NCBI GenBank assembly: GCA_965368975.1
Contig: CBDUPA010000002.1
Location: 457,824 to 521,823 of the forward strand
Direction: 5' to 3'
Source of the DNA: an uncultured bacterium
Lineage (GTDB): Bacteria > Acidobacteriota > Thermoanaerobaculia > Multivoradales > JAHZIX01
DNA: 64,000 bases
The notes under the pieces are model-generated. The model made no database searches and had not been told where the DNA came from. It saw only the letters and a list, made by a program, of their open reading frames with translations. This document shows, one piece after another, positions 36,009 to 60,822 of the stretch (position 1 is the stretch's first letter; each line of letters begins with the position of its first letter). Position numbers and translations under genes: made by a program.

Positions 36009-36010
36009 TT

Positions 36011-42108: not shown

Positions 42109-42264
42109 GGCTTTGGGTGCTCGGGGTCTGGGATACTGGAGCCCAGAAGGAAAAGGGACCTTTGTGGTCCTCTTTGGGGATACTAGGGACCTTATTGAGA
42201 CTTGTCAAGGCTGTGTCCAAGCTTCTGGGGCGGGGTGCGAGACACCACGGCGTAGACTCGGACC

Positions 42265-43412: not shown

Positions 43413-44213
43413 ATGAAGCTTTCCACCTCTCTTCTCCTCCTGGGATCGCTGCTGGTGCTGATGCCCGTCAGCTCCCAGGCGGCGATTCAGCCCATGCTGT
43501 TCTTCGAGACGCAGGTTCCCGCTGCATGCCTGGCGGAGCACCCGAACAACAAAGGCAGCTACATTCGGCAGTATCGGGACACCACCAACCCTTGCCCGGG
43601 ACTCTCCGTGTACCACATCGTCCATGGGGCCAACGCGTACGCCTGGAGCTTCGAGAGCTTCTACATCAGCAACGGATTCCTTCGCCAGATGAACGAAATC
43701 TTCATCAACGAGAACACCGGCGCCTTTACCTTCTACAGAGCCTTCCGAGATCAGACGACACTGTCGAAGGGGATTCCCACCATCCCAACGTATATCCCCG
43801 GCACCTCGAAGTTCTGGTATGCACCGCCGTACCATGAAGAACACTGGACGAACGGCAGTGGTCAACCTGTTTGCTTCAACACGCAGCAGAACTGGGTCTG
43901 GGGCTCCCTCAACTGGACGCAAGTCTACGACGGAGGCACCTACTCTGGCTGGCTGCAAGACAAGCGCTCGTCATCGCAGAACCCGAGTACCTGGCACAAT
44001 GTGCAGGTCGTCGTCAGAGTGGACCAGTGGGGCTACGGCAATTACGAGTTCTACCACTACGGCCGCTGGCAGAATCCCGCGACGGGACAGTGGCAGGGGT
44101 TGGGCCTGATCAAGTGGGAGAAGTACTCCGGCTCTCAGCTCGTCATCGCCACCGAGAACCACTATCTGGTGGATTGCAACGTTGTGGCCACGTGCACAAC
44201 ATGCCCTCCCTGA
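43413..44213 (+). CDS. Secreted Trp/Tyr-rich Cys-containing protein of unknown function (lower-GC gene)
   Basis: Signal peptide MKLSTSLLLLGSLLVLMPVSSQA; RBS AAGGAG at 43401. 266 aa, ~15% aromatic residues, C-terminal CNVVATCTTCPP. GC ~57% versus ~68% background. No recognisable family. Confidence 0.55.
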   Translation: MKLSTSLLLLGSLLVLMPVSSQAAIQPMLFFETQVPAACLAEHPNNKGSYIRQYRDTTNPCPGLSVYHIVHGANAYAWSFESFYISNGFLRQMNEIFINENTGAFTFYRAFRDQTTLSKGIPTIPTYIPGTSKFWYAPPYHEEHWTNGSGQPVCFNTQQNWVWGSLNWTQVYDGGTYSGWLQDKRSSSQNPSTWHNVQVVVRVDQWGYGNYEFYHYGRWQNPATGQWQGLGLIKWEKYSGSQLVIATENHYLVDCNVVATCTTCPP

Positions 44214-45687: not shown

Positions 45688-48600
45688 ATGTCGACGTCGG
45701 ATCCGTCGCGTCCGAATGGCGCGCAGACGCCGCAGCCTACGCTCAGCGGGACGCAGCAGCTCTTGGCCGCACAGCTGACGGCCTTCAACCAGCTGGTGCA
45801 GAATCAACTGGCGGCGCTGCGTGGCGCTGGCGTGCGCAACCAGGCACCAGCAACGCAGGGCACGGCCGCGACGCAGGGGGCAGCCGCGACGCAGGGAGCA
45901 CCGCCACCAGCTCCCACCGAGCCATCAACGACGACGCAAGCAGAGGCAACCCCAGCCGGAGACAAGAAGCTCGCCTTCTTCACCCGCCGCGACGGCAAAC
46001 CCGGCCTGAAAGGTGCGACGGTGGGCGACGAGTCGCTGCGGCACGAGGTGCCGGACATCGTGCTCGAAGCGCGAGAGGAAGTGAAGTTCAGCTTCTACTT
46101 CTTCGGCAACTACCCGGCCGGCTTCCGCGACGACAAATACGACCTCCTTTTCCGGGCGGCGCGCTTCGCCGACACGCACGGCTTCGAAGGGCTGTGGTTC
46201 CCGGAGCGGCACTTCCATCCGTTCGGCGGCCTGTCACCCAACGCGTCGGTACTGGCGGCAGCGCTGGCGCGGGAGACGGAACGGGTGCGCCTGTGCTCCG
46301 GCAGCGTGGTGCTGCCCCTACACCATCCGGTGCGGGTAGCGGAGGAATGGTCCCTGGTGGACAACCTGTCCAAAGGGCGCGTGGGACTGTCCGTCGCGTC
46401 CGGCTGGCATCCCAACGACTTTGTGCTGGCACCGGAGAATTTCGGCAAGCACAAAGACCTGACGTTCGATCGTATCGACATCATTCGGCGCCTGTGGCGC
46501 GGCGAGCCGGTGACGTTCCCGGACGGCGCCGGCAACGACTTTCCGGTGCAGCTCTTCCCGCGACCGCTGCAGCAAGAGCCGACCATCTGGATGACGGTGG
46601 TCAACAACCCGGAAACCTACCGCCGCGCGGGCGAGGTCGGCGCCGGGGTCTTGACCAACCTGATGTCGCAGACGCCGGAGGCGCTGGCGGACAACCTCAA
46701 GATTCACCGGCAGGCGCTGCTCGACCACGGGCACGACCCGGAGAAGGCCCCGGTGACGGTGCTGCTGCACACGTTCCTCGGCAGCGACCAGCAAGCCGTG
46801 ATGGAGCATGCGCGCAAGCCGTTTCACGCCTACCTGGAATCGTCCGTGGGACTGTTCAAGAACATGGCGGCGGCACACGGGGTGTCGGTCGATTTCGACC
46901 GCCTGAGCGAAGAAGACAACGAGTACTTGATGGACCTGGCCTACCAGCGCTACGCGGCGACCAGCGCGCTGGTCGGCACGCCCGACACGTGCATGCCGAT
47001 CGTCGAACGATTGCGCCAGATGGGGGTACACGAGATTGCCTGCCTGGTGGACTTCGGTGTCGACGCACCGTCCGTGCAAGAGAGCCTGCCCTTCGTCGAC
47101 GAGCTACGACAGCGCTTCGAGGCCGAGGCAGTGCAACAGCGCGGACCGATGGACCTCCCCGCGCCGGCGGCACCGCCCTCGGCGATGTCTGCGACGACGC
47201 CCCAGCCGGGGCGCATCATGGACGCACGGGGAGCCCAGATAGAGGCAGACAGCTTCCCGCTCACCGGTTCGCAGCAGCAGCTCTACACCCTCGCCGCCTT
47301 CAGCCCGGCCGCCAGCGCCGCCTACAACGAGCACATGGTGCTGGAACTGAACGGTCCCCTGCAGCTGCCGGCGCTGGAAGCGGCGCTGGCACAGGTGGTG
47401 CTTCGGCACGAGGCGCTACGCACGGTGCTGGTGCCAACAGCGGGTGACGACAACGACCATCAGCGCGTGCTGCAGTCCGTGGATCTACGCCTCTCCCTGG
47501 TCGATGCAACGGGCCTGGGTGCCGCTGGCATCGAGATCGTATCCGAAGCGTGGCGCGCCGAGATCGGCGGTCGAGCGTTGGACCTGGAGCACGGGCCACT
47601 AGCCCGCATCGGCCTGCTGCGACTGGGCGGCGGACGTCACCTGCTGGCGCTGATCGTCCATCACACGATGGCCGATGGTCTATCGCTGGTGGTCGTGGGA
47701 CGTGAGCTGCTGGCCCTCTACGATGCCTTCGCTAGCGGCACCGAGCCACCGGTGCTGCCAGCACCGATGTCCATCCGCGACTATGCCGCCTGGATCGACG
47801 CGGCGCTGGCGCAGCGCGACATCGAAGCCTGCGACGCCTGGTGGCGCCAACACATGGCGGCTCCGCTGCCGACCTTCGACCCACCGACGGACCGGCCACG
47901 ACCGCCGGTGCGCAGCTTCGAAGGAGATCGCCGCTGGCTGCGTCTCGACGGCGACTTCCTACAAGCCGTGCGCGACTTGGGCGCCAAGCATGGCTGCACC
48001 CTGACCGTGACGCTGCTCGCCGCTTACGCCGAGGTGCTGCGGCGCTGGTGTGGCCAGGACGACGTCATCGTCGGCATTGCCGCCGCGCATCGACCCGGCG
48101 GAGCCCAAGGTGAAGCGCTGGTGGGGCACACCACGGACGTCCTGCCGCTGCGCTGGAACCGCGCCGGTGAAGCCGGCGACCTCGACTTCGCCAACCACCT
48201 GAAAGCCACCCGTCACCTGCTCTTCGACGCCCAGGAGCACGACTGCGGCTTTCCGCACCTGCTGCGCCTGCTCGACGTCAAGCCCGAGCCGGGCCGCGGT
48301 TCGCTGGTGAGCACCATCTTCAACATCGACCCCGAGCTGCCGCTGCCTCCGTCCGGCGGCCTGCAGACGCGCGTTGGCGAACCGGTGTTCCGCAAAATCA
48401 AGTTCGACCTGGCGCTACATGTCGTCCCTGGACTTGCTGTCCCCAGTCTGGCCGCCCCCGGAGTTGCCGGCCCCGGAGCTGGAGAGGCAGGGTCGACCAC
48501 CGGCAACCTGGCCTTCGGTCTCGACTACGTCACCGACCTGTTCGACGCCACCACCATGCAGCGCCTGCTCGGCCACCTGCACACTCTGCTCGACGCCGCC

Positions 48601-50535
48601 GTCGCCGACCCGGCACGACCGCTGACGTCGCTGCCCCTGTGCTCGACGGCGCAGCGGCAGCAAGCGCTCTACGAGTGGGGCGGCTACCGTCCTTTCGAGG
48701 TGGCTTTCGACCCCGAAGATCCAGAGCTGGGCGGCAACATTGCGCACCAGTTCCGACAGCAAGCGGCCCGCACCCCGGATGCCGTCGCGGTGGTGGCGGG
48801 ACATTGCCACCTCAGCTACCGGGAGCTCGACCGCCGCGCCCACAGCCTGGCCGCACAGTTGGTACAGCTGGGCATCCGCCCGGAGACGCCCGTGGCTCTG
48901 TGCACCGAGCGCAGCCTGGAGCGCATCGTCGCCCTGGTCGGCATCCTCGCCGTCGGCGGCGTCTACCTGCCGCTCGACCCCGCCGACCCCGCGCGACGCC
49001 TCGGCTACCTACTCGACGACACCGGCGTCCAGCTGGTCCTCGGCACCGGCGAGCAGCTCGACCGCCTGCCGCTGGACGAATTGGACGAACGCGACATCGA
49101 GATGCTGGAGCTGGAGGAGCTGGACGTGCACAACGAGGTGGAGAGCGCACCGCTTCCCGCCTGCCACCCCGACCAGCTCGCCTATATCGTCTACACCTCC
49201 GGCTCGACCGGCCAGCCCAAAGGCGTCCGCGTGCCGCACCGCGCCGTCCTACGCCTGGTACAGCGCACCGACTTCGCACGCATGGACGCGGACGAAACCT
49301 GGCTGCACGCCGCGCCACTCGCCTTCGACGCCTCGAAGCTCGAAATCTGGGGCGCCCTGCTGCACGGCAGCCGCCTGGTGCTGCTGCCGCCCGGCAAGCA
49401 AGACCTGGCGTCGATCGCGCGCGTGATCGAACGCGGTGGCATCTCCTCCGCCTGGTTGACGGCAGCGCTGTTCCAGCAGATGGTGGAACAGCAACTGCCA
49501 AGACTGGGGGGTCTGCGTCAATTGCTGGCGGGCGGCGATGTCCTCGCTCCGGACGCTGTGCGCCGGCTGCTCGAAGTCCACGACAGCCTGCGATTGATCG
49601 ACGGCTACGGCCCCACTGAAAACACCACCTTCACCACCTGCGGCCCGGTCGATCGCCCCGAAGACGTCGGCACCACGGTGAGCATCGGCCGCCCGATCGC
49701 GGGGACCCGGATCTTGGTGCTGGACGAGAACAGCCAGCCCGTGCCGCCGGGTGTGCCCGGGGAGTTGCTGGCGGCGGGAAGCGGCCTGGCACGCGACTAC
49801 CTAGCGCAACCGGCCCTGACCGCCGAGCGCTTCGTGCCGAATCCATTTCCAGGCGCCCCGGGAGAACGCGTCTACCGCACCGGCGACCGTGCCCGCTTCT
49901 TCGCCGACGGCCGCCTCGACTTCCTAGGCCGCATCGACCAGCAGGTCAAAGTGCGCGGCTTCCGCGTCGAACCGGGCGAGATCGAAGCGGTACTCGGCGA
50001 GCATCCGGAAGTGTCGCAGGCAGCGGTGGTGCTGCGTCGGGATGAGGAGGACCAGAGCCTCGTCGCCTTTGTGTCGCCACGTGAGTTGCTAGCCGGGGAT
50101 GGGGAAGTGTCGCCAGAACTGGCGCAAAGCCTGACGGCGACAATCCGGACCTACCTGGAACATCGCCTGCCGCCATACATGGTCCCGTCCGTCTTCGAAG
50201 TGCTGCCGCGCCTGCCGGTGAACGCCAACGGCAAACTGGACCGGAAGGCACTAGCGAGCCTGGCTGAAGGAGCGCAGACGGCATCGGCCGCGGTGAAGAT
50301 TGCGCCGCGGACACCGCTGGAGACGCGACTGACAGAGATGTGGTGCGAGGTGCTGAAGCGGGACGAGGTCGGGGTGACGGAGAACTTCTTTGACCTCGGC
50401 GGACATTCTTTGCTGGCGACGCGGTTGTTGTACCGCGTGCACCAGGCGTATGGCGTCGAGTTGCCGATGCTGGAGCTGTTCCAACATCCGACGATCGAGG
50501 AGTTGGCGGCGCGGGTGGAGGGTGTGCGGGGGTAG
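45688..50535 (+). CDS. Non-ribosomal peptide synthetase, single module: luciferase-like monooxygenase (LLM)-C-A-PCP (1615 aa)
   Basis: RBS GGAGGAGG. LLM domain (FSFYFFGNY...HGFEGLWFPERHFHPFGG...SVASGWHPNDF). C-domain HHTMADGLS. A-domain AYIVYTSGSTGQPKGV, FDASKLEIW, YGPTENTTFTT, YRTGDRARF, NGKLDRKAL. PCP FFDLGGHSLLATRLL. No TE or reductase domain. Confidence 0.9.
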   Translation: MSTSDPSRPNGAQTPQPTLSGTQQLLAAQLTAFNQLVQNQLAALRGAGVRNQAPATQGTAATQGAAATQGAPPPAPTEPSTTTQAEATPAGDKKLAFFTRRDGKPGLKGATVGDESLRHEVPDIVLEAREEVKFSFYFFGNYPAGFRDDKYDLLFRAARFADTHGFEGLWFPERHFHPFGGLSPNASVLAAALARETERVRLCSGSVVLPLHHPVRVAEEWSLVDNLSKGRVGLSVASGWHPNDFVLAPENFGKHKDLTFDRIDIIRRLWRGEPVTFPDGAGNDFPVQLFPRPLQQEPTIWMTVVNNPETYRRAGEVGAGVLTNLMSQTPEALADNLKIHRQALLDHGHDPEKAPVTVLLHTFLGSDQQAVMEHARKPFHAYLESSVGLFKNMAAAHGVSVDFDRLSEEDNEYLMDLAYQRYAATSALVGTPDTCMPIVERLRQMGVHEIACLVDFGVDAPSVQESLPFVDELRQRFEAEAVQQRGPMDLPAPAAPPSAMSATTPQPGRIMDARGAQIEADSFPLTGSQQQLYTLAAFSPAASAAYNEHMVLELNGPLQLPALEAALAQVVLRHEALRTVLVPTAGDDNDHQRVLQSVDLRLSLVDATGLGAAGIEIVSEAWRAEIGGRALDLEHGPLARIGLLRLGGGRHLLALIVHHTMADGLSLVVVGRELLALYDAFASGTEPPVLPAPMSIRDYAAWIDAALAQRDIEACDAWWRQHMAAPLPTFDPPTDRPRPPVRSFEGDRRWLRLDGDFLQAVRDLGAKHGCTLTVTLLAAYAEVLRRWCGQDDVIVGIAAAHRPGGAQGEALVGHTTDVLPLRWNRAGEAGDLDFANHLKATRHLLFDAQEHDCGFPHLLRLLDVKPEPGRGSLVSTIFNIDPELPLPPSGGLQTRVGEPVFRKIKFDLALHVVPGLAVPSLAAPGVAGPGAGEAGSTTGNLAFGLDYVTDLFDATTMQRLLGHLHTLLDAAVADPARPLTSLPLCSTAQRQQALYEWGGYRPFEVAFDPEDPELGGNIAHQFRQQAARTPDAVAVVAGHCHLSYRELDRRAHSLAAQLVQLGIRPETPVALCTERSLERIVALVGILAVGGVYLPLDPADPARRLGYLLDDTGVQLVLGTGEQLDRLPLDELDERDIEMLELEELDVHNEVESAPLPACHPDQLAYIVYTSGSTGQPKGVRVPHRAVLRLVQRTDFARMDADETWLHAAPLAFDASKLEIWGALLHGSRLVLLPPGKQDLASIARVIERGGISSAWLTAALFQQMVEQQLPRLGGLRQLLAGGDVLAPDAVRRLLEVHDSLRLIDGYGPTENTTFTTCGPVDRPEDVGTTVSIGRPIAGTRILVLDENSQPVPPGVPGELLAAGSGLARDYLAQPALTAERFVPNPFPGAPGERVYRTGDRARFFADGRLDFLGRIDQQVKVRGFRVEPGEIEAVLGEHPEVSQAAVVLRRDEEDQSLVAFVSPRELLAGDGEVSPELAQSLTATIRTYLEHRLPPYMVPSVFEVLPRLPVNANGKLDRKALASLAEGAQTASAAVKIAPRTPLETRLTEMWCEVLKRDEVGVTENFFDLGGHSLLATRLLYRVHQAYGVELPMLELFQHPTIEELAARVEGVRG
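45970..47100 (+). other. Luciferase-like monooxygenase domain (natural-product LLM type) fused N-terminally to the NRPS module
   Basis: TIM-barrel flavin monooxygenase-like motifs; ~375 aa. Confidence 0.7.
47155..48480 (+). other. NRPS condensation domain
   Basis: HHTMADGLS (nt ~47660). Confidence 0.8.
48565..50130 (+). other. NRPS adenylation domain
   Basis: A3 TSGSTGQPKG (nt ~49195), A4 FDAS, A5 YGPTE, A10 NGKLDRKAL. Confidence 0.85.
50290..50500 (+). other. PCP (thiolation) domain
   Basis: LTEMWCEVLKRDEVGVTENFFDLGGHSLLATRLLYRV. Confidence 0.85.
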
Positions 50536-50539
50536 TGAG

Positions 50540-53098
50540 TCATTCCTCTGGGCTCCACTTTTCAAGCACAGCCAAACGGACCTCGTGTCGTTCTGGAAGC
50601 TTGGCCACACAGCGAAGGAGCTCCTCAACAAAAGTAGTGAGCCGAGTCGTGTCGCCAAGAGCTTCCAGCGTTAGGGAAAGATTGTGTATCAAACGCAGGG
50701 AGTCTGGGTGCTCTCGACCAAGAACACGGCGGCTGATCTTGAGTGTCGCCAACTGATGATCACGTGCACCTACATAGTCACCAAGACAGCGAAGCGTTTC
50801 AGCAAGGTTGTTGCGCGAACTAAGGGTGGCCGGATGCTCTTCGCCCAAGACTCGACGACGGACCTCTAGAACAGCTGAATGCTCATCTCGAGCCTTTCCA
50901 TACTCCTCTAGTGACCGAAGTGTTTCGGCAAGGTTGTTGCGCGAATGTAAAGTGCTCGGGTGCTCGTCACCAAGGGTACGGCGACTAATTGCTAACGTTG
51001 CCGAGTGTTCACATCGAGCACCGGCGTAGTTGCCAAGAGAGCGAAGGGTCTCGGCAAGATTATTTCGCGAACGAAGCGTGTCTTGGTTCTCTTCGCCCAG
51101 GACACGACGACGCACTTCTAAAACTGCTGCATGCTCATCTTGAGCGGCCGCATAGTCACCAAGAGAACGAAGAGTCTCTGCAAGATTGCTGCGAGAATGG
51201 AGCGTGGACGGGTGTTCTTCACCCAAGAGACGGCCATAGACCTCAAGTGTTGCTGAGAGTTCATCTCGAGCACCGGTGTAGTCACCAAGCGCACGAAGAG
51301 TCGCGGCAAGATTGTTGCGCGAACGTAGTGTAGCTTGGTGCTCTTCACCTAAAACACTGCGGCAGACTTCTAGAGCCCTTACTTCGAGCTGCCTTGCCAC
51401 TTTGTAGTGCCCTATCGCAAAAACATAGAAACCCGTTTTCCGCAGAATTCGAGCCGGATTCACTTTGAAGACATCAAGGTCAACCTTCCTCCAGTGTTTG
51501 TCTGTTGCCTGGACCTGCGGTAACAACCGCTGGAACTGTGGCCAGCTGATCGGCTCATCAGGTCTTCCCGCTGGCATAGCGGCATCGAGTGCCCTGTGAG
51601 CACACTCCAGTGCCCCGTTCCATTCTCCAGCAGTTTCTAACTGCGCCAGCATCACCTCCTGCACTAGTCGGTGTAGCGAGAGCGTACGAGCTATTCGGTC
51701 CCAAGTCACCAAGGAATAGCGCTGTAACGGTGCCAACACCAACTCAGCAAAGGTCAATGGACACTGCAAATCTTCCTTGACTTCAGCAGCAGCAGGTCCG
51801 AGGTACTCGCCGCCTTGGCTGAAGATCTCTGCAGGGATGTCGAATGGCGCATAGAAAGCACAAGCCCTTAACACTTCGGCTGCAACCGGGGCAGTCTTCT
51901 CCAGCGGCTTGAAGCTGAGGTTCCATGTAGTCGCCACCGTCGCCGGATAGTCTCCAAACTGCGGCGCCTCCTTGTCCAGCAGCTTCAGACGTCGCTTCCG
52001 ATACGCAGCGAGGTAGTCAGCAAAGCTGACTTCGTGAATATCGACATAGGCACCTGCTTGCTCCAAAGCCAACGGTAAGTAACCGAGTTCCTCCGCCAAC
52101 TCCTCGGCAGCTGACCGAGCACCCGCATCCCTCCTAGCTCGCCGAAGAAGCAGATCCGTCGCCTGCTCCGACGGCAGTACACCCACTCCAAGCGGCTCCT
52201 GCCCAAAACCCTGGATCTTCCGATCACGCGACGTCACCAGCAGATGCCCCGAACTAGCAGCCGGCCTGAGAGGTCGAATCTCATCGGGCGCATCAACGTT
52301 GTCGAGCACCAACAGCCAGTCGCCTCGTTCCGACAACCAATGTTGAAACATCTCTGCAGCTTCGTCGACTGGTGTCTCTCGGGTGGTGATTTTGAGTCGC
52401 TGCGCCATCTGCGCATAGCTGGCTCGCAGCGCGTCAGCAGAAGAAGCATCCGCCCAGAAGACATACGGATAGTCAGCGCGATGGCGATAGCAAAACTCGA
52501 CCGCCGTCTGAGTCTTACCGATGCCACCGAGCCCTGTGATCGCCTGCGTCGAGGCCACACGCTTGGCCGCGGCAAGTCGCCGTTCCAGCTCCTCCAGTAA
52601 CTCCTCCCGCCCCGTGAAGAACGGATTGCGAGGCGGCACGTTCCAGAAAGTTCGCGGCTCCTCGTCTGGTCCGAAGAAGCGGGCTTTGACCAGCGGATAC
52701 TCACGAACTCTCTTGTCAAACGACGTGAGCCCCCAAACTTTCAGCTCGAACTCGCCCTGAATCACCTCGACCAGATGTTCTTCCGTCTCACGACTGACCG
52801 GACAGGTCGCCGCCAGCAAGTAGACATCCGGCGAGGGTGTCGGCGGCTTCCTGAGCACCTTCCTCACTTCGTCGGCAGCCTGCGCCTTGCCGAAGCGTTG
52901 CACACGCTTCGCCTGCGTCACCCATCGCCGCCCATCCGGCGCAGTGCTGACGACATCGCAGCCATCCTCACTACCTGCATCGCCCCAGTGGCGCACCTCC
53001 CTATGCCCCATGGCTTCAAGCAACCAGTGACACAGCTCCTCGAACTGCCTCGGAGACAGCTCGAAGTAGTTGAGATGGTGCTCGGTGTAGGCCATCAA
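50540..53098 (-). CDS. STAND NTPase: N-terminal Mrr-like PD-(D/E)xK nuclease, NB-ARC, C-terminal TPR array; candidate anti-phage defence (Avs / bacterial NLR-like) protein; lower-GC gene
   Basis: N-terminus FEELCHWLLEAMGHREV...GSEDGCDVV...RWVTQAKRV (D...QxK restriction-endonuclease-like core). NB-ARC Walker A ITGLGGIGKTQTAVEF, Walker B LLVLDNVD, LLVTSRD, GLPLA-like LGYLPLALEQAGAYV. Then ~7 TPR_12-like repeats (LGEEHPSTLHSRNNLAETLRSLGDYAGAR). GC ~52-59% versus ~68% background. Confidence 0.75.
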   Translation of the reverse strand: MMAYTEHHLNYFELSPRQFEELCHWLLEAMGHREVRHWGDAGSEDGCDVVSTAPDGRRWVTQAKRVQRFGKAQAADEVRKVLRKPPTPSPDVYLLAATCPVSRETEEHLVEVIQGEFELKVWGLTSFDKRVREYPLVKARFFGPDEEPRTFWNVPPRNPFFTGREELLEELERRLAAAKRVASTQAITGLGGIGKTQTAVEFCYRHRADYPYVFWADASSADALRASYAQMAQRLKITTRETPVDEAAEMFQHWLSERGDWLLVLDNVDAPDEIRPLRPAASSGHLLVTSRDRKIQGFGQEPLGVGVLPSEQATDLLLRRARRDAGARSAAEELAEELGYLPLALEQAGAYVDIHEVSFADYLAAYRKRRLKLLDKEAPQFGDYPATVATTWNLSFKPLEKTAPVAAEVLRACAFYAPFDIPAEIFSQGGEYLGPAAAEVKEDLQCPLTFAELVLAPLQRYSLVTWDRIARTLSLHRLVQEVMLAQLETAGEWNGALECAHRALDAAMPAGRPDEPISWPQFQRLLPQVQATDKHWRKVDLDVFKVNPARILRKTGFYVFAIGHYKVARQLEVRALEVCRSVLGEEHQATLRSRNNLAATLRALGDYTGARDELSATLEVYGRLLGEEHPSTLHSRSNLAETLRSLGDYAAAQDEHAAVLEVRRRVLGEENQDTLRSRNNLAETLRSLGNYAGARCEHSATLAISRRTLGDEHPSTLHSRNNLAETLRSLEEYGKARDEHSAVLEVRRRVLGEEHPATLSSRNNLAETLRCLGDYVGARDHQLATLKISRRVLGREHPDSLRLIHNLSLTLEALGDTTRLTTFVEELLRCVAKLPERHEVRLAVLEKWSPEE
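50580..51420 (-). repeat. Tandem ~126-bp nucleotide repeats (about 7 copies) encoding TPR repeats
   Basis: Recurrent caagattgttgcgcgaacg.../aaggttgttgcgcgaa... blocks every ~126 nt; mirrored at protein level by RSRNNLAETLRSLGDY... repeats. Confidence 0.8.
51840..52590 (-). other. NB-ARC NTPase domain
   Basis: GxxGxGKT Walker A, hhhhD Walker B, TTR-like and GLPL-like motifs. Confidence 0.75.
52650..53098 (-). other. Mrr-like restriction endonuclease (PD-(D/E)xK) effector domain of the STAND protein
   Basis: Motif order D (GSEDGCDVV) then QxK (VTQAKR), as in Mrr_cat. Confidence 0.5.
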
Positions 53099-53138
53099 GA
53101 CTCGCTGTGCTCGAAAGTCTCGGGCAGGCCTTAGAAAG

Positions 53139-54212
53139 CTAAGCAGCCTGCCGCGACGTCAAGATCTCCTCGAAGAACCGCTCCACGCCCGCCAAGAACA
53201 CCTCCGGCGTATCCATCACCTGCAACTGACGCCGCAGCTTCAACCCATCCGGAAGCCCGAAGCTGTACCAGCGCGCAAAACTCCGCAGCTTGTGCATGGC
53301 ATCGGTTCGCTCGCGCGTCTCGGCAACGGTGCGGAAGTGATCCAAGATCAACTCCCTGCGATCTTCCAGCGTCGGCTCGCGTAACTGCTTGCCCTCCAGC
53401 CGCGCGGCGATCTGACGGAACAGCCACGGATTCTTGGTCGCACCGCGCCCAACCATGACGCCATCACAGCCGGTCTTCCTGAACATCTCGATGGCATCTT
53501 CCGGCTCTTCGACGTCACCATTGCCGATCACCGGAATCGACAGCGCTTCCTTCAAGCGCGCGATGTGGGTCCAGTCAGCCTCGCCTTTGTACATCTGCTT
53601 GGCGGTGCGGGCGTGCATGGCGACGGCGTCGACGCCTTCAGCGTCGCAGATGCGGCCCAGTTCCAGGTAGTTCCGGCGGTTCACGTCCAGACCGAGACGG
53701 AACTTGACCGTCAACGGGACGCTCACCTGCCGCCGGACATTGACGATGATCGCCTCGGCTAGCTTCAGATCTCCCATCAACGCGGCCCCGGCGCAGCCTT
53801 TGAGCACCTTGTTGGCGGGACAACCCATGTTGATGTCGCACAGGTCGGGGCGCAGGTCCTCGACGATGCGGGCGGCGTCGGCCATGGTGTCGGCGTCGGA
53901 GCCGTAGATCTGGATGGCCAGGGGGCGTTCTTCCTCCTGGAACTGCATCAGGCGGCGCGTGAACTTGCGGCCGCTGGTGATATCGCGAGAGGAGAGGAAT
54001 TCCATCGACACCACACCGACACCGCCGATGCGGCGCACGATGAGGCGAAAGTCGCAATCGGTGATGCCGGCCATGGGGGCCAGCCACAGGGGTGGATCGA
54101 CGGTGACGCGGTGTTCTCCCGTGCCCAGGTGTACGGGGTCGGCGGCGACAGGAGCAGCGGTGTGTTGGCGCGGAGTTTCAGGCATGGTGCAGGTCTGGGT
54201 TGTGCCGGTCAT
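53139..54212 (-). CDS. dus: tRNA-dihydrouridine synthase (DusB-like)
   Basis: LAPMAGITDCDFR, ...DINMGCPANKV..., KFRLG, catalytic Cys; start likely internal to the track ORF (an N-terminal ~30 aa extension). Confidence 0.85.
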   Translation of the reverse strand: MTGTTQTCTMPETPRQHTAAPVAADPVHLGTGEHRVTVDPPLWLAPMAGITDCDFRLIVRRIGGVGVVSMEFLSSRDITSGRKFTRRLMQFQEEERPLAIQIYGSDADTMADAARIVEDLRPDLCDINMGCPANKVLKGCAGAALMGDLKLAEAIIVNVRRQVSVPLTVKFRLGLDVNRRNYLELGRICDAEGVDAVAMHARTAKQMYKGEADWTHIARLKEALSIPVIGNGDVEEPEDAIEMFRKTGCDGVMVGRGATKNPWLFRQIAARLEGKQLREPTLEDRRELILDHFRTVAETRERTDAMHKLRSFARWYSFGLPDGLKLRRQLQVMDTPEVFLAGVERFFEEILTSRQAA

Positions 54213-54271
54213 GGCAGTTCTGCAGGAAAGGCGAATTGTAACGCAGGCACCAGGGCGGTAGGATCGGACGC

Positions 54272-55009
54272 GTGGCCTGGTACAAGGAATGGTTCGACGA
54301 GCAGTATCTCGACCTCTACGCCCACCGCGACGAACGCGAGGCGGAGCGGCAGGTCGATTTCGTCGAGTCCCAGCTCAGTGATGGTCCGCGACCGCGGATG
54401 ATTCTGGACCTGGCCTGCGGGGCCGGGCGCCACTCGGACATCCTGAGCAAGCGTGGCTACCGGGTGGTGGGTGTCGACCTCTCGCTGACCCTACTCGCCG
54501 TCCACCCGGGACCGCGCCGGATCTGCGGCGACATGTGCAGCCTGCCCTTCCACTGCGACAGCTTCGACTGGCTACTCAACTTCTTCACCTCCTTCGGCTA
54601 CTTCGAGCGCGAGCGCCAGAACTTCCAGGTGCTGGAGGAGATCACTCGCGTGCTGCGCCCTGGCGGTCGCTTCCTGCTCGACTTTCTCAACCGCGACGTG
54701 GTGATCAACAACCTGCGGCCCACGGACGTCCAGGAGGACGACAAGCGACGGGTGGAGATCGAGCGCTGGTACGACCCAGCGTCACAGCGCATCAACAAAC
54801 GCATTCGCGTACAACCTCGCGGGGCTGCTCCCCGTACCTACCTCGAGAGCGTGCGCGCCTACTCCCAGGAAGAAGTCACCATCGGGATGCGCTGGGCGGG
54901 ACTGGAAGTCGACACGCTCTTCGGTAGCTTCGACGGAGACTCCTTTCATCGTGACAGCGAACGCCTCATCATCCTCGGGCACAAGCCCATCCTCGGCAGT
55001 GGCCGCTGA
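54272..55009 (+). CDS. Class I SAM-dependent methyltransferase
   Basis: ILDLACGAGRHS (motif I), YRVVGVDLS, LRPGGRFLLD; immediately upstream of, and overlapping, bshC. Confidence 0.75.
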   Translation: MAWYKEWFDEQYLDLYAHRDEREAERQVDFVESQLSDGPRPRMILDLACGAGRHSDILSKRGYRVVGVDLSLTLLAVHPGPRRICGDMCSLPFHCDSFDWLLNFFTSFGYFERERQNFQVLEEITRVLRPGGRFLLDFLNRDVVINNLRPTDVQEDDKRRVEIERWYDPASQRINKRIRVQPRGAAPRTYLESVRAYSQEEVTIGMRWAGLEVDTLFGSFDGDSFHRDSERLIILGHKPILGSGR

Positions 55010-56801
55010 CGCCGCTGCGCGGGATCCTGACGAGTACGGCCTCGGTCCGCTCGTCGCCACGGATCTACCGCGACTCGACTTGCTGGCGGGCGAACGCCTG
55101 GCACCGCTCTCTGCGGCGCTGGTGCGGGGTGAGCAGCGCGAGTTGCTGGCGCCGCTACGCCACCTGACACCGGGCACGCTGCCGGCAGCCATTGCGCCGG
55201 CTGGCAATGAGCCCGCACCGCTCGACCGTTCCGCGCTGGCGGAGGGCCTGGCCATCGCCAATCGTAGCTATGGCCACCCCAAGGCCACGGAACTGGCCGC
55301 CAAGCTGGCGGATCCGGCAACGCGCGTGGTGGTGACGGGGCAGCAGCCGGGGTTGTTCGGCGGTCCGCTGTACACGCTGTCCAAGGCGCTGGCGGCGGCG
55401 CGGTGGGCTGAAGCACTAGAGGCGGCGGCCCTGGAAGAAAGGGCAATAGAGGCGGCGGCCCCGGAAGCTCGGAATGGGGACACCCCCGGACAGCCTGCGG
55501 TGGCGGTCTTCTGGGTAGCCACCGAGGATCACGACTTCCGCGAGGTGGCGACGACGACCGTACTGGGTCCAGACGGGCCGTTGACGTTGACGCTCGGCGA
55601 CGATTCACAGCCGCTGTTGCCGGTCGGCATGCGCAGCCTGGGACCGGGGGTGGAAGAGATCCTGGCGACGCTGCGGGAGCAGCTACCCGGCGACCGCTAC
55701 AGCGACTGGCTGGACGAGGTCGGCCGCTGGTATCGACCGGACGCGCGCTTCGGCGAGTCGTTCTGCCGTCTGCTGGTGCGCTTGCTGGGTGACCGCTGCC
55801 CGCTGATCCTCGACGCGATGTTGCCGGCGGTGAAGGTGGCGCAGCAGCCGTGGTTGCGGCAGCTGGTGGAGCAGCGGCATACGGTGGCCCGCAAGATCGC
55901 CGAGCACGAAGCGAACGTCGAGGCCGCGGGCTTCCCACTGCAGGTGGCGGCCCAGGGCCCCGCGACAGACCCGGAGCCGGAAAGCTCGATTGTCAGTCCG
56001 CTGTTTCTCTTGCACCAGGGGGAGCGTCGACGTATCGAGTGGCAGGGGGAGGACCGGTTCAGCCTGCGCGGCAGCGACGAGCCGGCGCGGCCGGTGGCCG
56101 AACTGTTGCAGCTGCTGGACGACAATCCTCTCCTGGTGAGTCCCGGCGTGCTGGCACGGCCAGCCGTGCAGGACGCGATTCTCGGCACCACGCTGATGGT
56201 GCTGGGCCCGGCCGAGCTCGCCTACATGACGCAGGCTTCCGCGTGCCACAAAATACTCGGCCTCGATGCACAGAACCGGCCCGCCCCCTGGGTGACACTG
56301 CGGCCACAGATCGCGGTGCTCGAACCGCGGCATCTGAATTGGCTCGAGGAGCTGGGGCTGCGCCTGCCGCAGCTGCTGGGCGATCGCGAGACTCTGAACG
56401 CCGAGCTGGCGCGGCGGCACGGCGCCGACTTCGTGGCGCCGATGCAGAAACGCATCCTGGCCCTGCTCGAAGAGCTGCGCGATGCCGCCATCGCGGTTGA
56501 TCCGAATCTGCTCAGCTCGTGGAAGAAGACGCGCGGGCAGGTGGAGAAGGCGCTGGGCATGTTCCAGGGCCGCATCCACCAGGCGGCCGCACGCGCCGAC
56601 GAGACGCGCAACCAGCGACTGGACAACCTGCGGGACACCTTGTTGCCCGCCGGCAAGGGACAGGAGCGGTTGATCTCCTGCATCCACTTCCCGGGCAAGT
56701 ACGGTGACGACTTCGTCGAGGCCTGCTGGCTGCAGCTGGATCTCGACCCGCGGCAGCTGCAGGTGGTGCAGTCCGTACCGCCGCGGGGGAAGCAGCCATG
56801 A
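54951..56801 (+). CDS. bshC: Bacillithiol biosynthesis cysteine-adding enzyme BshC
   Basis: 616 aa with the BshC family core VVVTGQQPGLFGGPLYTLSKALAAARWAE and overall length and topology of YllA/BshC. The start overlaps the upstream methyltransferase gene by 59 nt; exact start uncertain. Confidence 0.7.
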   Translation: MTANASSSSGTSPSSAVAADAAARDPDEYGLGPLVATDLPRLDLLAGERLAPLSAALVRGEQRELLAPLRHLTPGTLPAAIAPAGNEPAPLDRSALAEGLAIANRSYGHPKATELAAKLADPATRVVVTGQQPGLFGGPLYTLSKALAAARWAEALEAAALEERAIEAAAPEARNGDTPGQPAVAVFWVATEDHDFREVATTTVLGPDGPLTLTLGDDSQPLLPVGMRSLGPGVEEILATLREQLPGDRYSDWLDEVGRWYRPDARFGESFCRLLVRLLGDRCPLILDAMLPAVKVAQQPWLRQLVEQRHTVARKIAEHEANVEAAGFPLQVAAQGPATDPEPESSIVSPLFLLHQGERRRIEWQGEDRFSLRGSDEPARPVAELLQLLDDNPLLVSPGVLARPAVQDAILGTTLMVLGPAELAYMTQASACHKILGLDAQNRPAPWVTLRPQIAVLEPRHLNWLEELGLRLPQLLGDRETLNAELARRHGADFVAPMQKRILALLEELRDAAIAVDPNLLSSWKKTRGQVEKALGMFQGRIHQAAARADETRNQRLDNLRDTLLPAGKGQERLISCIHFPGKYGDDFVEACWLQLDLDPRQLQVVQSVPPRGKQP

Positions 56802-57562
56802 GCGAGTCGCGGCAGCCTCAGAAGCTCGACGTACTGGCGATCGGCGCGCATCCGGACGATGTCGAGCTCGGCTGCGGCGGCACGCTCGCCGTGCTGGCAC
56901 AGCAGGGCAAGAAGGTCGGCATCGTGCACCTGACGCGCGGTGAGCGCGGCACGCGCGGCACACCGGAGGAGCGCGAGCAGGAAGCAGGACGCGCGGCGGA
57001 AGCGCTGGGGGCGGAGGTGCTCGAACTCCTCGACTGCGGCGATGGCAGCCTGCGCACCGGTGAGGCGGAGGAAGACGCGCTGATCGAGGTGCTGCGACGC
57101 TACCGGCCGGAGGTCGTGCTCGGTCCGACGCCGCGTGATCGCCATCCGGATCATGGTCGCGCCCACCAGCTGGTGGAAGCCGCGGCCTTCTATGCCGGGC
57201 TGCGTCGACGCGGGGACGATGGGCTGGAGCCGCACCGGCCGGCGGCGGTGTTCAGCTACATGCAGCACGACCCGTTCGACGTGCGCTTCGTGGTCGACGT
57301 GACCGCCGGCTGGCAGCGCAAGTTGCGCTCGCTGGCTGCCTACGACAGTCAGTTGCACGCCACGGCCTTCGGCTCCGAGGACGGCAAGACCACCGACGAA
57401 CCCATGACCAAGGTCGCCACCCCGGAATTCGCCCTCGCCGTCGAGGGACGCGCGCGGCACTTCGGCCAGATGATCGGCGCCACCTTCGGCGAGCCGTTCA
57501 CCTGCCGTCTACCTCTGGCGGTCAGCGATGTACTGACCCTAGCACCCGGAGGGGTGCGATGA
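56798..57562 (+). CDS. bshB: Bacillithiol biosynthesis deacetylase BshB1 (LmbE/PIG-L family)
   Basis: LAIGAHPDDVELGCGGTLA (PIG-L zinc motif), HPDH; ATGA start/stop overlap with bshC. Confidence 0.8.
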   Translation: MSESRQPQKLDVLAIGAHPDDVELGCGGTLAVLAQQGKKVGIVHLTRGERGTRGTPEEREQEAGRAAEALGAEVLELLDCGDGSLRTGEAEEDALIEVLRRYRPEVVLGPTPRDRHPDHGRAHQLVEAAAFYAGLRRRGDDGLEPHRPAAVFSYMQHDPFDVRFVVDVTAGWQRKLRSLAAYDSQLHATAFGSEDGKTTDEPMTKVATPEFALAVEGRARHFGQMIGATFGEPFTCRLPLAVSDVLTLAPGGVR

Positions 57563-57657
57563 GCAATACCGCCCTAGCACCCGGAGGGGTGCGATGAGCA
57601 ATACCGCCCTGGCACCCGGAGGGGTGCGCTAATTGGACCGTGCACCCCTCCGGGTGC
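57542..57657. repeat. 35-bp tandem repeat (2.5 copies) duplicating the bshB 3-prime end and stop codon, ending in a perfect 16-bp inverted repeat
   Basis: gcacccggaggggtgcgatgagcaataccgcccta x2, then gcacccggaggggtgc-gctaattggaccgt-gcacccctccgggtgc. Creates two 12-codon mini-ORFs (MSNTALAPGGVR). Confidence 0.85.
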
Positions 57658-57677
57658 AACGAGAATATGGAGCGCCC

Positions 57678-58799
57678 ATGAAAATCGGTATCAGTTGTTA
57701 TCCGAGCTACGGCGGCTCCGGCGTGGTCGCCTCGGAGCTGGCCATGGCCCTCGCGGCCGGCGGCGACGAAGTGCACGTGATCAGCTATGCGTTGCCGTCG
57801 CGGTTGTTCCTCAACGACCCTCGGCTGCACTACCACGAGGTCGTGGTGCCGCACTATCCGCTGTTCGAGTATCCGCCCTACTCGCTAGCGCTCGCGACCA
57901 AGATGGTCGAGGTAGCACGGCACCAAGAGCTGGACCTCATGCACGTGCACTACGCGGTGCCCAACGCCGTCTCGGCCGTGCTAGCGCGGCAGATGTTGGA
58001 GCCGACACGCCACCTGCCGGTGGTGACGACCTTGCACGGCACCGATATCACGCTGGTCGGCAACGACCCCAACTACCTCGAGACAACTCGCTTCGGCATC
58101 CTGCAGAGCAACGGCGTCACCACTGTGTCGCAGGCGCTCAAGGACGGCACCTGTGAGCACCTGGGCATCAGCCGCGACATCGACGTAATTCCCAATTTCA
58201 TCGATCCGCAACGCTTCAGCAAGGTCAAGGCCGAGGGCTTCGGCGCACGCCGCTGGGCAGAGGGTGGCGACCGCCTGCTGGTGCACATCTCGAACTTCCG
58301 GCCGGTCAAGCGTACCGAGGACGTGGTCGAGATTTTCGCCCGCATCCGGCGCGAGGTGCCCTGCCGGCTCTTGATGGTGGGCGATGGTCCCGAGCGGGCG
58401 CGCGTCGAGAAGCTGTGCCGCGACCATAAGATCTGCCACGCCATCACCTTCATGGGCAACCTGCCACTGATCGAGGAAGTGCTGATCGGGGCGGACCTCT
58501 TCCTGCTGCCTTCGGAAAACGAGAGCTTCGGCCTGGCAGCGCTGGAGGCTCTGGCCTGCGGTGTGCCCGTGATCGCCAGTGATGTCGGTGGCTTGCCGGA
58601 AGTGGTGACCGAAGGCGAGAACGGCTTCCTGCGGCCGGTGGGTGATGTCGACGCGATGGCGGAGGCCGGCATTTCCCTGCTCCAGGACGCCGACCGGCAC
58701 GCGCGCTTCTGCAGGGCGGCGCGCACCCTGGCGGTAGAGCGCTTCGACCAGGACAAGGTGGTCGACCAGTACCGCGAGGCATACCGTAAGGTGCTGTGA
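57678..58799 (+). CDS. bshA: Bacillithiol biosynthesis glycosyltransferase BshA (GT4; N-acetylglucosaminyl-malate synthase)
   Basis: MKIGISCYPSYGGSGVVASELAMALAAGGDEVHVIS..., C-terminal GT4 EX7E region (SENESFGLAALEALACGVPVIASDVGGLPEVV). Start ATG 57678 with GGAG upstream. Confidence 0.8.
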   Translation: MKIGISCYPSYGGSGVVASELAMALAAGGDEVHVISYALPSRLFLNDPRLHYHEVVVPHYPLFEYPPYSLALATKMVEVARHQELDLMHVHYAVPNAVSAVLARQMLEPTRHLPVVTTLHGTDITLVGNDPNYLETTRFGILQSNGVTTVSQALKDGTCEHLGISRDIDVIPNFIDPQRFSKVKAEGFGARRWAEGGDRLLVHISNFRPVKRTEDVVEIFARIRREVPCRLLMVGDGPERARVEKLCRDHKICHAITFMGNLPLIEEVLIGADLFLLPSENESFGLAALEALACGVPVIASDVGGLPEVVTEGENGFLRPVGDVDAMAEAGISLLQDADRHARFCRAARTLAVERFDQDKVVDQYREAYRKVL

Positions 58800-60483: not shown

Positions 60484-60822
60484 ATGGACGCCCCCGCCCG
60501 CAACCAGCTGACCGAGATCCGCCGCCTACCCGAGGACAAGCGCCTGCGCCTGACCTGGCAAGACGGACACTGCGCTGACTTCGACTGGGACTACCTGCGC
60601 GGCTGGTGTCCATGTGCCGGCTGCCAGGGCCATTCGGGGGCCCATATCCAGTACAAGCCCCCCACCAAGCCGGTGAACCTGGAGCAGATCGAGGCGGTCG
60701 GCAACTACGCTGTCTCGTTCCTGTGGTCGGATGGCCACGGCACCGGTATCTACAAGTTCAGCTACCTGCGCGAGATCTGCCCATGTGACGGCTGCAAGTC
60801 GGGCCGGGAGGCGCAGGCTTGA
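60484..60822 (+). CDS. DUF971 (gamma-butyrobetaine hydroxylase-like N-terminal zinc-ribbon) domain protein
   Basis: 112 aa: LRLTWQDGHCADFDWDYLRGWCPCAGCQGH ... YKFSYLREICPCDGC. Confidence 0.7.
   Translation: MDAPARNQLTEIRRLPEDKRLRLTWQDGHCADFDWDYLRGWCPCAGCQGHSGAHIQYKPPTKPVNLEQIEAVGNYAVSFLWSDGHGTGIYKFSYLREICPCDGCKSGREAQA

Follow-up and report, generated by a model that had tools for sequence, protein, structure and literature searches.

A horizontally acquired Mrr-NB-ARC-TPR gene downstream of dus in an acidobacterial genome encodes a candidate NLR-like immune protein

Introduction

AP-ATPase-TPR conflict proteins with REase/Mrr heads have already been described computationally in bacteria (PMC7159879, PMC8195603), and the N-terminal heads of these and of the bacterial NB-ARC/TPR NLRs are known to be swappable, including Mrr-like REase, TIR, HNH, caspase and EAD domains (PMC7159879, PMC8195603, bioRxiv 10.1101/2020.01.06.895854). 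Mrr-headed STAND proteins were also among the seeds of the 2026 survey of Lee et al. (PMC13581612), which clustered only sensors of at least 400 aa, a length that the sensor described below (about 310 aa) does not reach.

Here we analyze a single gene of this kind in a 64,000-nucleotide stretch of DNA (hereafter, the window) from a member of the Thermoanaerobaculia. To our knowledge, almost no defence systems have been characterised in the phylum Acidobacteriota. A sequence-only reading of the window had proposed that the gene combines an Mrr-like nuclease, an NB-ARC NTPase and tetratricopeptide repeats in the manner of antiviral STAND (Avs) and bacterial NLR-like proteins, and that, of the systems in the window, it was the one most likely to be undescribed or poorly described. 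We compared each of these proposals with profile, structural, compositional and synteny evidence.

Results

A complete STAND gene between dus and an NRPS gene

The open reading frame list and translation place the gene on the reverse strand at 50540..53098. An ATG at 53095 is almost certainly the start codon, giving 851 aa, judging from stand-alone homologues of the head that begin at the same point ('MxxTEH'); the alternative is a TTG at 53098, 40 bp after dus. The gene and its borders are:

50540..53095, reverse strand: complete coding sequence of the Mrr-NB-ARC-TPR STAND protein, 851 aa, stop codon at 50540-50542
50536..50539, no strand: 4-bp gap separating the stop codons of the convergent NRPS and STAND genes, read from the sequence
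53096..53138, reverse strand: dus-STAND spacer, 43 bp from the dus stop codon to the STAND ATG
53139..54212, reverse strand: dus, tRNA-dihydrouridine synthase (Pfam Dus, E 9e-83)

The NRPS stop codon lies at 50533-50535, and a scan of 50000-54600 found no promoter-like or terminator-like site, in agreement with the stop-to-stop arrangement, leaving no room for a terminator, that had been read from the sequence. The lack of a separate promoter-like site in the dus-STAND spacer suggests that the gene may be transcribed by read-through from dus. The neighbours in the window are dus, the NRPS gene, one or more methyltransferase genes and the bacillithiol genes (bshCBA), with no known defence genes found within about 5 kb. 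In public databases the exact protein forms a singleton cluster.

Nuclease head and NB-ARC switch

The domains and motifs of the N-terminal part and central body are:

52661..53095, reverse strand: N-terminal Mrr-type PD-(D/E)xK nuclease head, aa 1-145 (Pfam Mrr_cat)
53039-53041, 52955-52957, 52913-52915 and 52907-52909, reverse strand: catalytic-type residues E19, D47, Q61 and K63 of the head, respectively
51896..52639, reverse strand: NB-ARC / AP-ATPase nucleotide-binding domain and ARC1, aa 153-400 (Pfam, NCBIfam, alignment)
52514-52516, reverse strand: K194 of Walker A GLGGIGKT (G188-T195)
52301-52303, reverse strand: D265 of Walker B LLVLDNVD
52226-52228, reverse strand: R290 of the sensor-1 motif TSR (quoted earlier as TSRD)
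aa 339-346, reverse strand: GLPL-like motif YLPLALEQ
51476..51895, reverse strand: winged-helix domain (Pfam DUF7779, aa 398-488, 35.3 bits) and helical spacer to aa 540 (predicted secondary structure)
51671-51673, reverse strand: H475, the conserved winged-helix histidine ('LHRLVQEV', MHD-like)

For the head, Pfam reported Mrr_cat at aa 12-80 (28.4 bits against a cutoff of 21), and we found both the alpha-beta-beta-beta-alpha-beta core and the E...D...(E/Q)xK signature of PD-(D/E)xK nucleases; the previously quoted motif GSEDGCDVV...VTQAKR is present in the translation. When PDB sequences were searched with a profile of the head, only AF1548 was returned (E 0.23), and fold comparison was needed; the predicted structure, a high-confidence model, has an Mrr-like nuclease fold, and its fold matches include the effector head of Avs4.

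The NB-ARC match covers aa 164-351 (36.6 bits against a cutoff of 23.5). All motifs expected of an AP-ATPase/NB-ARC STAND protein are present, including the winged helix with its conserved histidine, and in an alignment of 50 sequences the switch motif positions are invariant or nearly so, with H475, R476 and L477 almost invariant. There was no Pfam match to a NACHT module; NB-ARC, AAA_16 and AAA_22 were reported instead. The AlphaFold2 model of the whole protein has a mean pLDDT of 90.7 and a pTM of 0.77. Foldseek matched the body to Apaf-1, 6MFV and plant NRC proteins, and nearest by fold are a STAND-TPR crystal structure, Apaf-1 and Avs3. The three-part layout put forward by the sequence-only reading thus stands, with Mrr_cat and NB-ARC above their cutoffs and TPR_10 and TPR_12 matched, and the other motifs that it quoted (GLGGIGKT, LLVLDNVD, TSRD and, for the GLPL position, YLPLALEQ) are likewise all found in the translation.

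By sequence, the closest solved NTPase is that of AfsR (PDB 8K60, E 1.2e-12 over aa 157-401), with NRC2a also matched, and this resemblance bears on whether the protein could be an AfsR-like pathway regulator or sensor of the adjacent NRPS cluster. Such a role would fit the position of the gene, which abuts the NRPS gene, and biosynthetic clusters of actinobacteria often contain NB-ARC-TPR regulators. Nevertheless, we consider it very unlikely: the AfsR model NF053617 reached 61.5 bits over the NTPase only, far below its cutoff of 1430; no SARP, BTAD or HTH domain was reported by Pfam, and in place of the SARP/AfsR-type DNA-binding domain that had been named as the mark of a transcriptional regulator the head shows a nuclease fold whose catalytic motif is intact; and the gene is convergent to the NRPS gene and differs sharply from it in third-position GC content (GC3; 0.58 versus 0.83), with no NRPS gene in any of the four homologue neighbourhoods.

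The NTPase, winged-helix and TPR body also matched NCBIfam NF040586 (FxsT, 'FxSxx-COOH system tetratricopeptide repeat protein') at 515 bits against an equivalog cutoff of 300, and many homologues carry this name in NCBI records. Nonetheless, it is hardly credible that the protein serves as the TPR component (FxsT) of a system for FxSxx-COOH peptide maturation. The match begins only at aa 153 (best stretch aa 153-532) and leaves the nuclease head outside. What the model recognises is evidently the AP-ATPase-TPR chassis as a whole, regardless of the head. Partner families fxsA, fxsB and fxsC were absent within 10 kb on either side of the gene, the 64 kb contained neither an FxsA-like ORF ending in FxSxx nor a radical-SAM (CxxxCxxC) motif in a real gene, and no HExxH or radical-SAM family was found among the approximately 30 window proteins scanned.

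A short TPR sensor of kinesin-light-chain type

The C-terminal part consists of:

50543..51475, reverse strand: kinesin-light-chain (KLC)-type TPR sensor, aa 541-851 (TPR_12, TPR_10)
50621-51376, reverse strand: six 42-aa TPR units in exact register, aa 574-825

Pfam matched TPR_12 (E 8e-56) and TPR_10 (E 2e-50) over approximately aa 548-800, and the AlphaFold2 model adds capping helices to the six in-register units, for a total of six to seven repeats; the earlier count of about seven was therefore fair. Units 1-5 share 60-74% amino acid identity. Between the nucleotide sequences of the TPR units identity is 63-76%, and at third codon positions it is about 45%. A 126-nt direct-repeat family is visible in the TPR-coding part. 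Tandem Repeats Finder detected no DNA-level array, and the units are too divergent at nucleotide and third codon positions for a recent expansion of hypervariable repeats, a reading that we rejected. The sensor has the lowest GC3 of any domain in the gene (0.45).

Among PDB entries, the sensor matched the KLC1/2 TPRs by sequence and, by fold, reached TM scores of up to 0.8; the best structural matches were complexes of KLC TPRs with cargo peptides (JIP1 and torsinA C-termini, TM 0.76-0.77). KLC TPRs bind cargo peptides, of which the JIP1 and torsinA C-termini are examples. With about 290-310 aa following the spacer, the repeat sensor is short relative to those of characterised Avs proteins, and the type of ligand could accordingly differ.

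Atypical composition and no counterpart after dus in relatives

In composition, no gene of the window stands out more strongly than the STAND gene. Its GC content is 0.571, compared with a mean of 0.652 (sd 0.025) in 1-kb bins elsewhere in the window (z = -3.3), and the 51-52 kb bin (GC 0.551) is the lowest of all 64. The contrast is larger for GC3 (0.58 versus 0.816 +/- 0.036 in 23 other genes, z = -6.5) and is also strong for codon-usage likelihood (z = -5.1), so that the proposed GC and codon-usage profile bore out the impression gained from the letters. The drop in GC is real, but it had been measured against a background of about 68%, whereas the window lies at about 65% and only the adjacent NRPS gene reaches the higher value.

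On the other side, dus is the last gene of a conserved UPF0029-BshA-BshB-BshC-MT-Dus block and marks a synteny breakpoint, with the STAND gene lying beyond it. Acidobacterial relatives have the order dus-hyp159-IF-2B instead, and no STAND homologue was found downstream of dus in 43 acidobacterial loci; orthologues universally conserved beside dus, which would have spoken for a native gene, do not occur. Even in a search of 5.8 billion proteins, the closest relative is only about 48% identical. Given its atypical composition and its absence from the syntenic position in relatives, the STAND gene is a horizontally acquired gene, and it is intact.

The extent of the insertion is less sharply defined. 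The synteny break extends over at least 50 kb; tblastx of the post-dus regions of 15 relatives against the window gave composition noise only, and relaxed tblastn detected neither hyp159 nor IF-2B nor a recombinase in the window, even as a remnant, so the left boundary cannot be set beyond the gene itself. Att-like flanking repeats were limited to short (14-27 nt) direct or inverted matches at chance level, and no tRNA gene was found.

A foreign gene of this kind might be a recently landed, silent or decaying passenger with no present function in its host. Its strongly foreign codon usage, the absence of a detected promoter or terminator of its own, and its status as a singleton with no close relatives are what such a passenger would show. 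We regard this as improbable given an uninterrupted 851-codon reading frame in which catalytic and switch residues are all intact, a very confident predicted fold, and a 43-bp same-strand spacing after dus that permits co-transcription.

Homologues share the chassis and exchange the head

DUF7779 and TPR_10/12 are common to the STAND protein and thousands of homologues, and Pfam annotation of the homologues shows the same chassis bearing Mrr, TIR, SEFIR, HNH or EAD1 heads. In a tree built from the NTPase body only, proteins with SEFIR/TIR, EAD1 or HNH heads fall among those with Mrr heads. Viewed from the head, an exhaustive HMMER search collected 579 representative clusters of the subfamily, in which the head is always N-terminal; of 55 long proteins that bear the head, 16 join it to NB-ARC and 10 to NACHT, with TPR, WD40 or FGE-sulfatase sensors, the repertoire that PMC13581612 reports for the sensors of defence STANDs. 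Further matches to the head came from two PADLOC candidates, PDC-M58A and PDC-S73, and from REase-TIR proteins associated with Argonaute. The chassis also occurs on nine predicted viral contigs, there with TIR or HNH heads. Matches to bSEFIR within the family were rejected as a link to a validated system, for they cover the SEFIR head only, and the literature searched held no experimentally validated member of the exact chassis.

Four homologue neighbourhoods were examined. One homologue (P0004) adjoins AbiEi/AbiEii and a SEFIR/TIR STAND. Another (P0002) belongs to an island of approximately 12.8 kb that also encodes a large serine recombinase; the island is inserted downstream of the dus block that precedes the window gene as well, with hyp159 on one side and IF-2B on the other. 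The remaining two (P0051 and P0013) have neutral contexts with no defence genes. Inserts between dus and IF-2B in four other relatives carry miscellaneous cargo and not defence genes, for which reason we dropped the notion of a defence hotspot and describe the position only as a variable site. Taken together, head swapping, the varied sensor fusions, and the AbiE and recombinase-island contexts of homologues favour an NLR-like conflict or defence protein.

Discussion

Proposed function

We consider it probable that the gene, acquired directly downstream of dus, encodes an NLR-like, single-polypeptide AP-ATPase/NB-ARC STAND protein that acts by abortive infection. By analogy with solved Avs proteins, the TPR sensor and winged helix would hold the ADP-bound protein as an autoinhibited monomer at rest. 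The trigger would be a foreign ligand, most probably a protein or peptide of a phage, that binds the concave TPR groove and releases the NB-ARC switch; the switch would then bind ATP and oligomerise, joining the N-terminal Mrr-type heads as active dimers or tetramers. The assembled heads would be expected to cleave DNA without discrimination, so that the infected cell dies or is arrested.

The same architecture would serve equally well in a conflict or cell-death STAND nuclease triggered by something other than phage, such as plasmids or other mobile DNA, kin or non-self signals, or a stress-derived self peptide. AP-ATPase-TPR proteins have been framed as general conflict or apoptosis-like systems (PMC7159879, PMC8195603) and likened to fungal allorecognition NLRs (bioRxiv 10.1101/2020.01.06.895854), and a non-phage trigger would fit proposals made for them in social or multicellular bacteria and for fungal NB-ARC-TPR NLRs; the sensor is of the KLC/fungal-NLR TPR type, and the window gene has no surrounding defence island. 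We judge this unlikely, though worth keeping in view, as all experimentally characterised bacterial effector-STAND-TPR proteins sense phage proteins (PMC13581612) and the P0004 homologue adjoins the anti-phage abortive-infection pair AbiE.

A narrower proposal concerns what the protein might sense. A C-terminal FxSxx peptide is the presumed partner of the FxsT relatives of the chassis. Together with the KLC-cargo peptide complexes that best match the sensor, this raises the idea, doubtful at present, that the TPRs recognise a short linear or C-terminal peptide and do not envelop a folded phage protein. If so, the FxsT-like AP-ATPase-TPR chassis with its swappable heads would form a peptide-sensing branch of bacterial NLRs, one missed by the 2026 sensor survey because its sensors are shorter than 400 aa.

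Comparison with known systems

The protein shares the generic Avs layout, in which one polypeptide carries an effector at its N-terminus, a STAND NTPase in the middle and a repeat sensor at its C-terminus, and the earlier 'Avs' label is appropriate for the architecture. It does not extend to the models: PADLOC AVAST (Avs1-5) gave no match, the only hits being at the level of the head (Aga_REase-TIR, PDC-M58A and PDC-S73, E <= 0.1), and among 50 family members, too, neither AVAST models nor any other full-length defence model matched. PDC-S73, PDC-M58A and the Argonaute-associated REase-TIR proteins have the same Mrr-like head subfamily (aa ~10-141), but the remainder of each is unrelated to the NB-ARC-TPR body. 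For Avs4 (EcAvs4, PDB 8DGF) the parallel is again architectural, as no sequence relationship was detected either through AVAST models or by phmmer against 8DGF. Unlike Avs4, the STAND protein has an NTPase of the NB-ARC/AP-ATPase (AfsR/Apaf-1-like) clade; it is also smaller (851 versus 1,540 aa), with a short, regular KLC-type TPR array in place of the large, irregular sensor with which Avs4 recognises its ligand, the phage portal protein.

AfsR, the Streptomyces SARP-NB-ARC-TPR regulator (PDB 8K60), has a similar NTPase followed by TPRs, but its N-terminal SARP domain binds DNA and it activates transcription, whereas the STAND protein carries a nuclease head at this position. The FxsT model shares the NTPase, winged-helix and TPR body and does not extend to the nuclease head.

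There is also a likeness to the AP-ATPase-TPR conflict systems of Kaur, Burroughs, Iyer and Aravind (2020, 2021; PMC7159879, PMC8195603) and the bacterial NB-ARC/TPR NLRs of Dyrka et al. (2020; bioRxiv 10.1101/2020.01.06.895854), with which the protein shares both NTPase clade and TPR sensors. Those surveys stress actinobacteria, cyanobacteria and other multicellular lineages and highlight fast-diversifying repeats with 80-90% internal conservation; the gene described here comes from the Thermoanaerobaculia, and its TPR units are 60-74% identical. To call it undescribed was thus an overstatement, as NF040586 already names the chassis, REase/Mrr-headed AP-ATPase-TPR proteins appear in PMC7159879 and PMC8195603, and Mrr-headed seeds in PMC13581612. 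With architecture and likely logic established for Avs4 and related STANDs, the gene is a further member of the bacterial NLR-like family of candidate immune proteins and no new category of system. Should it prove functional, the Acidobacteriota (Thermoanaerobaculia) would contribute an NLR-like immune gene with an Mrr nuclease. The chassis, in which an NB-ARC switch is combined with a short KLC-type TPR sensor, has thousands of homologues and is abundant in metagenomes, but PADLOC does not see it and NCBI mislabels it as an FxSxx-COOH component. The locus offers a clean example both of effector-head swapping on one chassis and of a variable post-dus site, occupied in a related genome by a serine-recombinase island that includes a homologous gene.

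Gene boundaries and domain architecture

The open reading frame of the STAND gene (50540..53098, reverse strand) is genuine, and its start codon is likely the ATG at 53095, giving a product of 851 amino acids, because stand-alone homologues of the head start at the same position. The Pfam domains of this product bear out the Mrr-like nuclease, NB-ARC and TPR architecture proposed by the sequence-only reading, with all motifs present:

Residues 12-80: Mrr_cat, exceeding the cutoff
Residues 164-351: NB-ARC
Residues 398-488: DUF7779, the winged-helix region
Residues about 548-800: TPR_12 and TPR_10, strong matches

The head retains the Mrr-type E...D...QxK signature (E19, D47, Q61 and K63), invariant in 10 Mrr-headed relatives and 30 diverse head homologues, and its AlphaFold2 model has a canonical alpha-beta-beta-beta-alpha-beta nuclease core (pLDDT 92.2 for the head by itself; 90.7, with pTM 0.77, for the full-length protein). 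The NTPase carries the full set of STAND switch elements (GLGGIGKT, LLVLDNVD, TSR, YLPLALEQ and the conserved His of LHRLVQEV), which were invariant or nearly invariant across the family in a 50-sequence alignment. That the gene is a silent passenger is possible but disfavoured by its intact ORF and motifs. The sensor consists of six TPR units of 42 amino acids each, in exact register (residues 574-825). Units 1-5 share 60-74% protein identity and only about 45% identity at third codon positions, which points to old, selectively maintained repeats rather than a recent expansion; TRF found no DNA-level repeat array in the TPR region. By Foldseek, the nearest folds to the whole model were the archaeal STAND-TPR crystal structure 6MFV, Apaf-1 and Avs3, and those nearest to the sensor were kinesin-light-chain (KLC) TPR domains (TM up to 0.8).

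At the sequence level, AfsR is the closest solved NTPase. A role as an AfsR-like regulator of the adjacent NRPS gene is nevertheless opposed by the lack of a DNA-binding head (the SARP/AfsR-type head named beforehand as the sign of such a regulator was looked for, and the nuclease core stands in its place), by an AfsR model score of 61.5 bits, far short of the 1430-bit cutoff, by a gene composition unlike that of the NRPS, and by the occurrence of NRPS genes in none of the neighbourhoods of four homologues (P0002, P0004, P0013 and P0051). The NCBIfam equivalog NF040586, with a score of 515 bits (cutoff 300), would instead make the protein FxsT, the TPR component of an FxSxx-COOH system; however, everything before residue 153 lies outside the match, and the window contains nothing resembling fxsA, fxsB or fxsC, whether gene or motif. 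The model evidently detects the generic chassis, meaning the NTPase, DUF7779 and TPR body without its head, and the NCBI FxSxx-COOH name has probably been over-propagated across NB-ARC-TPR proteins. NF040586 also scored well over cutoff on such proteins with nuclease, TIR or SEFIR heads and without Fxs partner genes.

Composition and immediate flanks

The lowered GC of the gene, also claimed from sequence alone, was confirmed at 0.571 versus 0.652 +/- 0.025 in the other 1-kb bins (z = -3.3), with bin 51-52 kb the minimum among the window's 64. GC3 was 0.58 versus 0.816 +/- 0.036 in 23 other genes (z = -6.5), and the synonymous-codon likelihood gave z = -5.1. Both neighbours have native-like GC3 (NRPS 0.83, dus 0.82), and therefore the anomaly is limited to the STAND gene alone. 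Along the gene (50543-53095), GC3 declines monotonically from head (0.73) through NTPase (0.62) to TPR (0.45), which could reflect a chimeric origin via domain shuffling or uneven amelioration. A similar TPR dip was seen in P0004 (0.48) and was absent from the other homologues compared. GC3 fell below host level in two of the four homologues examined, clearly in P0051 and, along with its island genes, in P0002.

The stop codons of the NRPS gene (50533-50535) and the STAND gene (50540-50542) are separated by 4 bp, as first described, and the STAND ATG lies 43 bp after the stop of dus on the same strand. A consensus scan of 50.0-54.6 kb returned zero promoter-like or terminator-like sites, in agreement with the proposed lack of a terminator, and neither a tRNA nor a convincing att-like repeat was found beside the gene.

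Synteny at the dus locus

Dus homologues (best identity about 70%) assign the window to class Thermoanaerobaculia of the Acidobacteriota, many relatives in which conserve the UPF0029-BshA-BshB-BshC-methyltransferase-Dus block, typically followed by hyp159 and IF-2B (loci L001, L002 and L004). Conservation of the STAND gene beside dus, suggested earlier as counter-evidence, was looked for, and 0 of 43 acidobacterial loci had a STAND or NRPS homologue downstream of dus. Since hyp159 and IF-2B are absent throughout the window, even at relaxed thresholds, dus marks a synteny break, and the leftward limit of the rearrangement cannot be fixed. Because none of the relatives' post-dus genes (hyp159, IF-2B, PTA, PurD, PSP1, Hfq and PdxA in L001-L043) was found in the 64-kb window, the break covers at least 50 kb (window 1-50535), a rearrangement exceeding a single-gene insertion.

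The best homologue, P0002 (1,136 amino acids; 48% identity over 820), lies downstream of the same dus block in a related Thermoanaerobaculia genome (ENA ERZ25074695, contig ctg340335, 453 kb), within an approximately 12.8-kb insert between hyp159 and IF-2B (L081:3758-17065) that also holds a large serine recombinase (535 amino acids), two TPR proteins, an S8 peptidase and a hydrolase. GC3 of the island genes is 0.61-0.70 versus 0.85 in flanking genes. In other relatives this site holds different inserts of 3-6 kb with miscellaneous cargo, so it is variable and not demonstrably a defence hotspot.

Other genes of the window

The window encodes a complete bacillithiol biosynthesis set at 54951-58799 (BshC, BshB/PIG-L and BshA/GT4); the real BshC start is probably later than listed, because the ORF overlaps the methyltransferase gene by ~60 bp and homology only begins near 55074. 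There are two separate NRPS genes, and the roughly 37 kb separating them contain housekeeping genes, among them the suf operon. The NRPS gene at 45688-50535, whose end is 4 bp from the STAND gene, is a single LLM-C-A-T module; its N-terminal luciferase-like monooxygenase is unusual, and it lacks a release domain. The product of the other (633-7988) is C-A-KR-T-TE and carries a docking domain of the TubC type. Four sizeable ORFs (210-294 amino acids) had no Pfam match (43413-44213, 41554-42186, 35589-36293 and 60731-61615), the first of which lies in a local lower-GC patch (0.58) yet keeps a native GC3 (0.80). The gene at 42265-43197 codes for a DUF429 protein.

Effector exchange and contexts of homologues

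The exact protein sequence is present in public databases as a singleton, with closest relatives at merely 46-48% identity and thousands of more distant homologues sharing the NTPase-DUF7779-TPR_10/12 body. In a tree of the body only, Mrr-headed proteins are interleaved with other-headed ones, and sister pairs join P0016 (SEFIR/TIR head) with P0004 (Mrr head), P0011 (EAD1 head) with P0005, and P0021 (HNH head) with P0006; swapping of effectors on one chassis is thus directly visible in the tree. Exhaustive HMMER searching placed the head subfamily in 579 representative clusters, nearly always N-terminal. Among 55 long head-bearing proteins, 16 had NB-ARC and 10 had NACHT, with TPR, WD40 or FGE-sulfatase sensors, the repertoire reported in defence-associated STANDs (PMC13581612). 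PADLOC matched the head to the candidates PDC-M58A and PDC-S73 and to Argonaute-associated REase-TIR proteins. Matches to bSEFIR within the family were rejected as a full-system link, as they covered the SEFIR head only.

Next to P0004 lie AbiEi/AbiEii and another STAND, this one SEFIR/TIR-headed, whereas P0051 and P0013 have neutral contexts. At the P0004 locus (L084:3242-14639), the SEFIR/TIR STAND (1,190 amino acids) and P0004 (953 amino acids) are separated by 3 kb and directly followed by the AbiEii/AbiEi pair, a small cluster resembling a defence island; in its body, the SEFIR/TIR protein shares 61% identity with the Mrr-headed P0002. Chassis relatives at 27-41% identity occur on nine predicted viral contigs (IMG/VR) with other effector heads, among them TIR_2 (L085, L086 and L088), HNH_2 (L089) and a weak trypsin-like match (L087).

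Proposed mechanism

What is shown here is anatomy, conservation and context. By analogy with solved Avs complexes, we infer that ligand binding by the TPR sensor would free an ADP-locked NB-ARC switch, whose ATP-dependent oligomerisation would juxtapose the Mrr heads as an active nuclease that degrades DNA and aborts infection. The main rival is a role in non-phage conflict or cell death. A less conventional and rather unlikely idea is that the short KLC-type sensor recognises a peptide, either linear or C-terminal.

Comparison with known systems

The description of the system as undescribed was overstated. Computational studies already describe the AP-ATPase-TPR class and its REase/Mrr, TIR, HNH and EAD heads (PMC7159879, PMC8195603, bioRxiv 10.1101/2020.01.06.895854), and Mrr-headed STANDs were among the seeds of a 589-clade survey (PMC13581612), so the protein is not categorically new; it is a poorly annotated, experimentally untouched member from an under-studied phylum. 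Its proposed standing as an Avs or bacterial-NLR candidate holds as a candidacy, although no AVAST or other full-length PADLOC model matched the protein or its family, so that by HMM it does not belong to Avs1-5. Its layout of Mrr-like nuclease, STAND and TPR parallels that of Avs4, but the NTPase comes from another clade, and the KLC-type sensor is much shorter and more regular.
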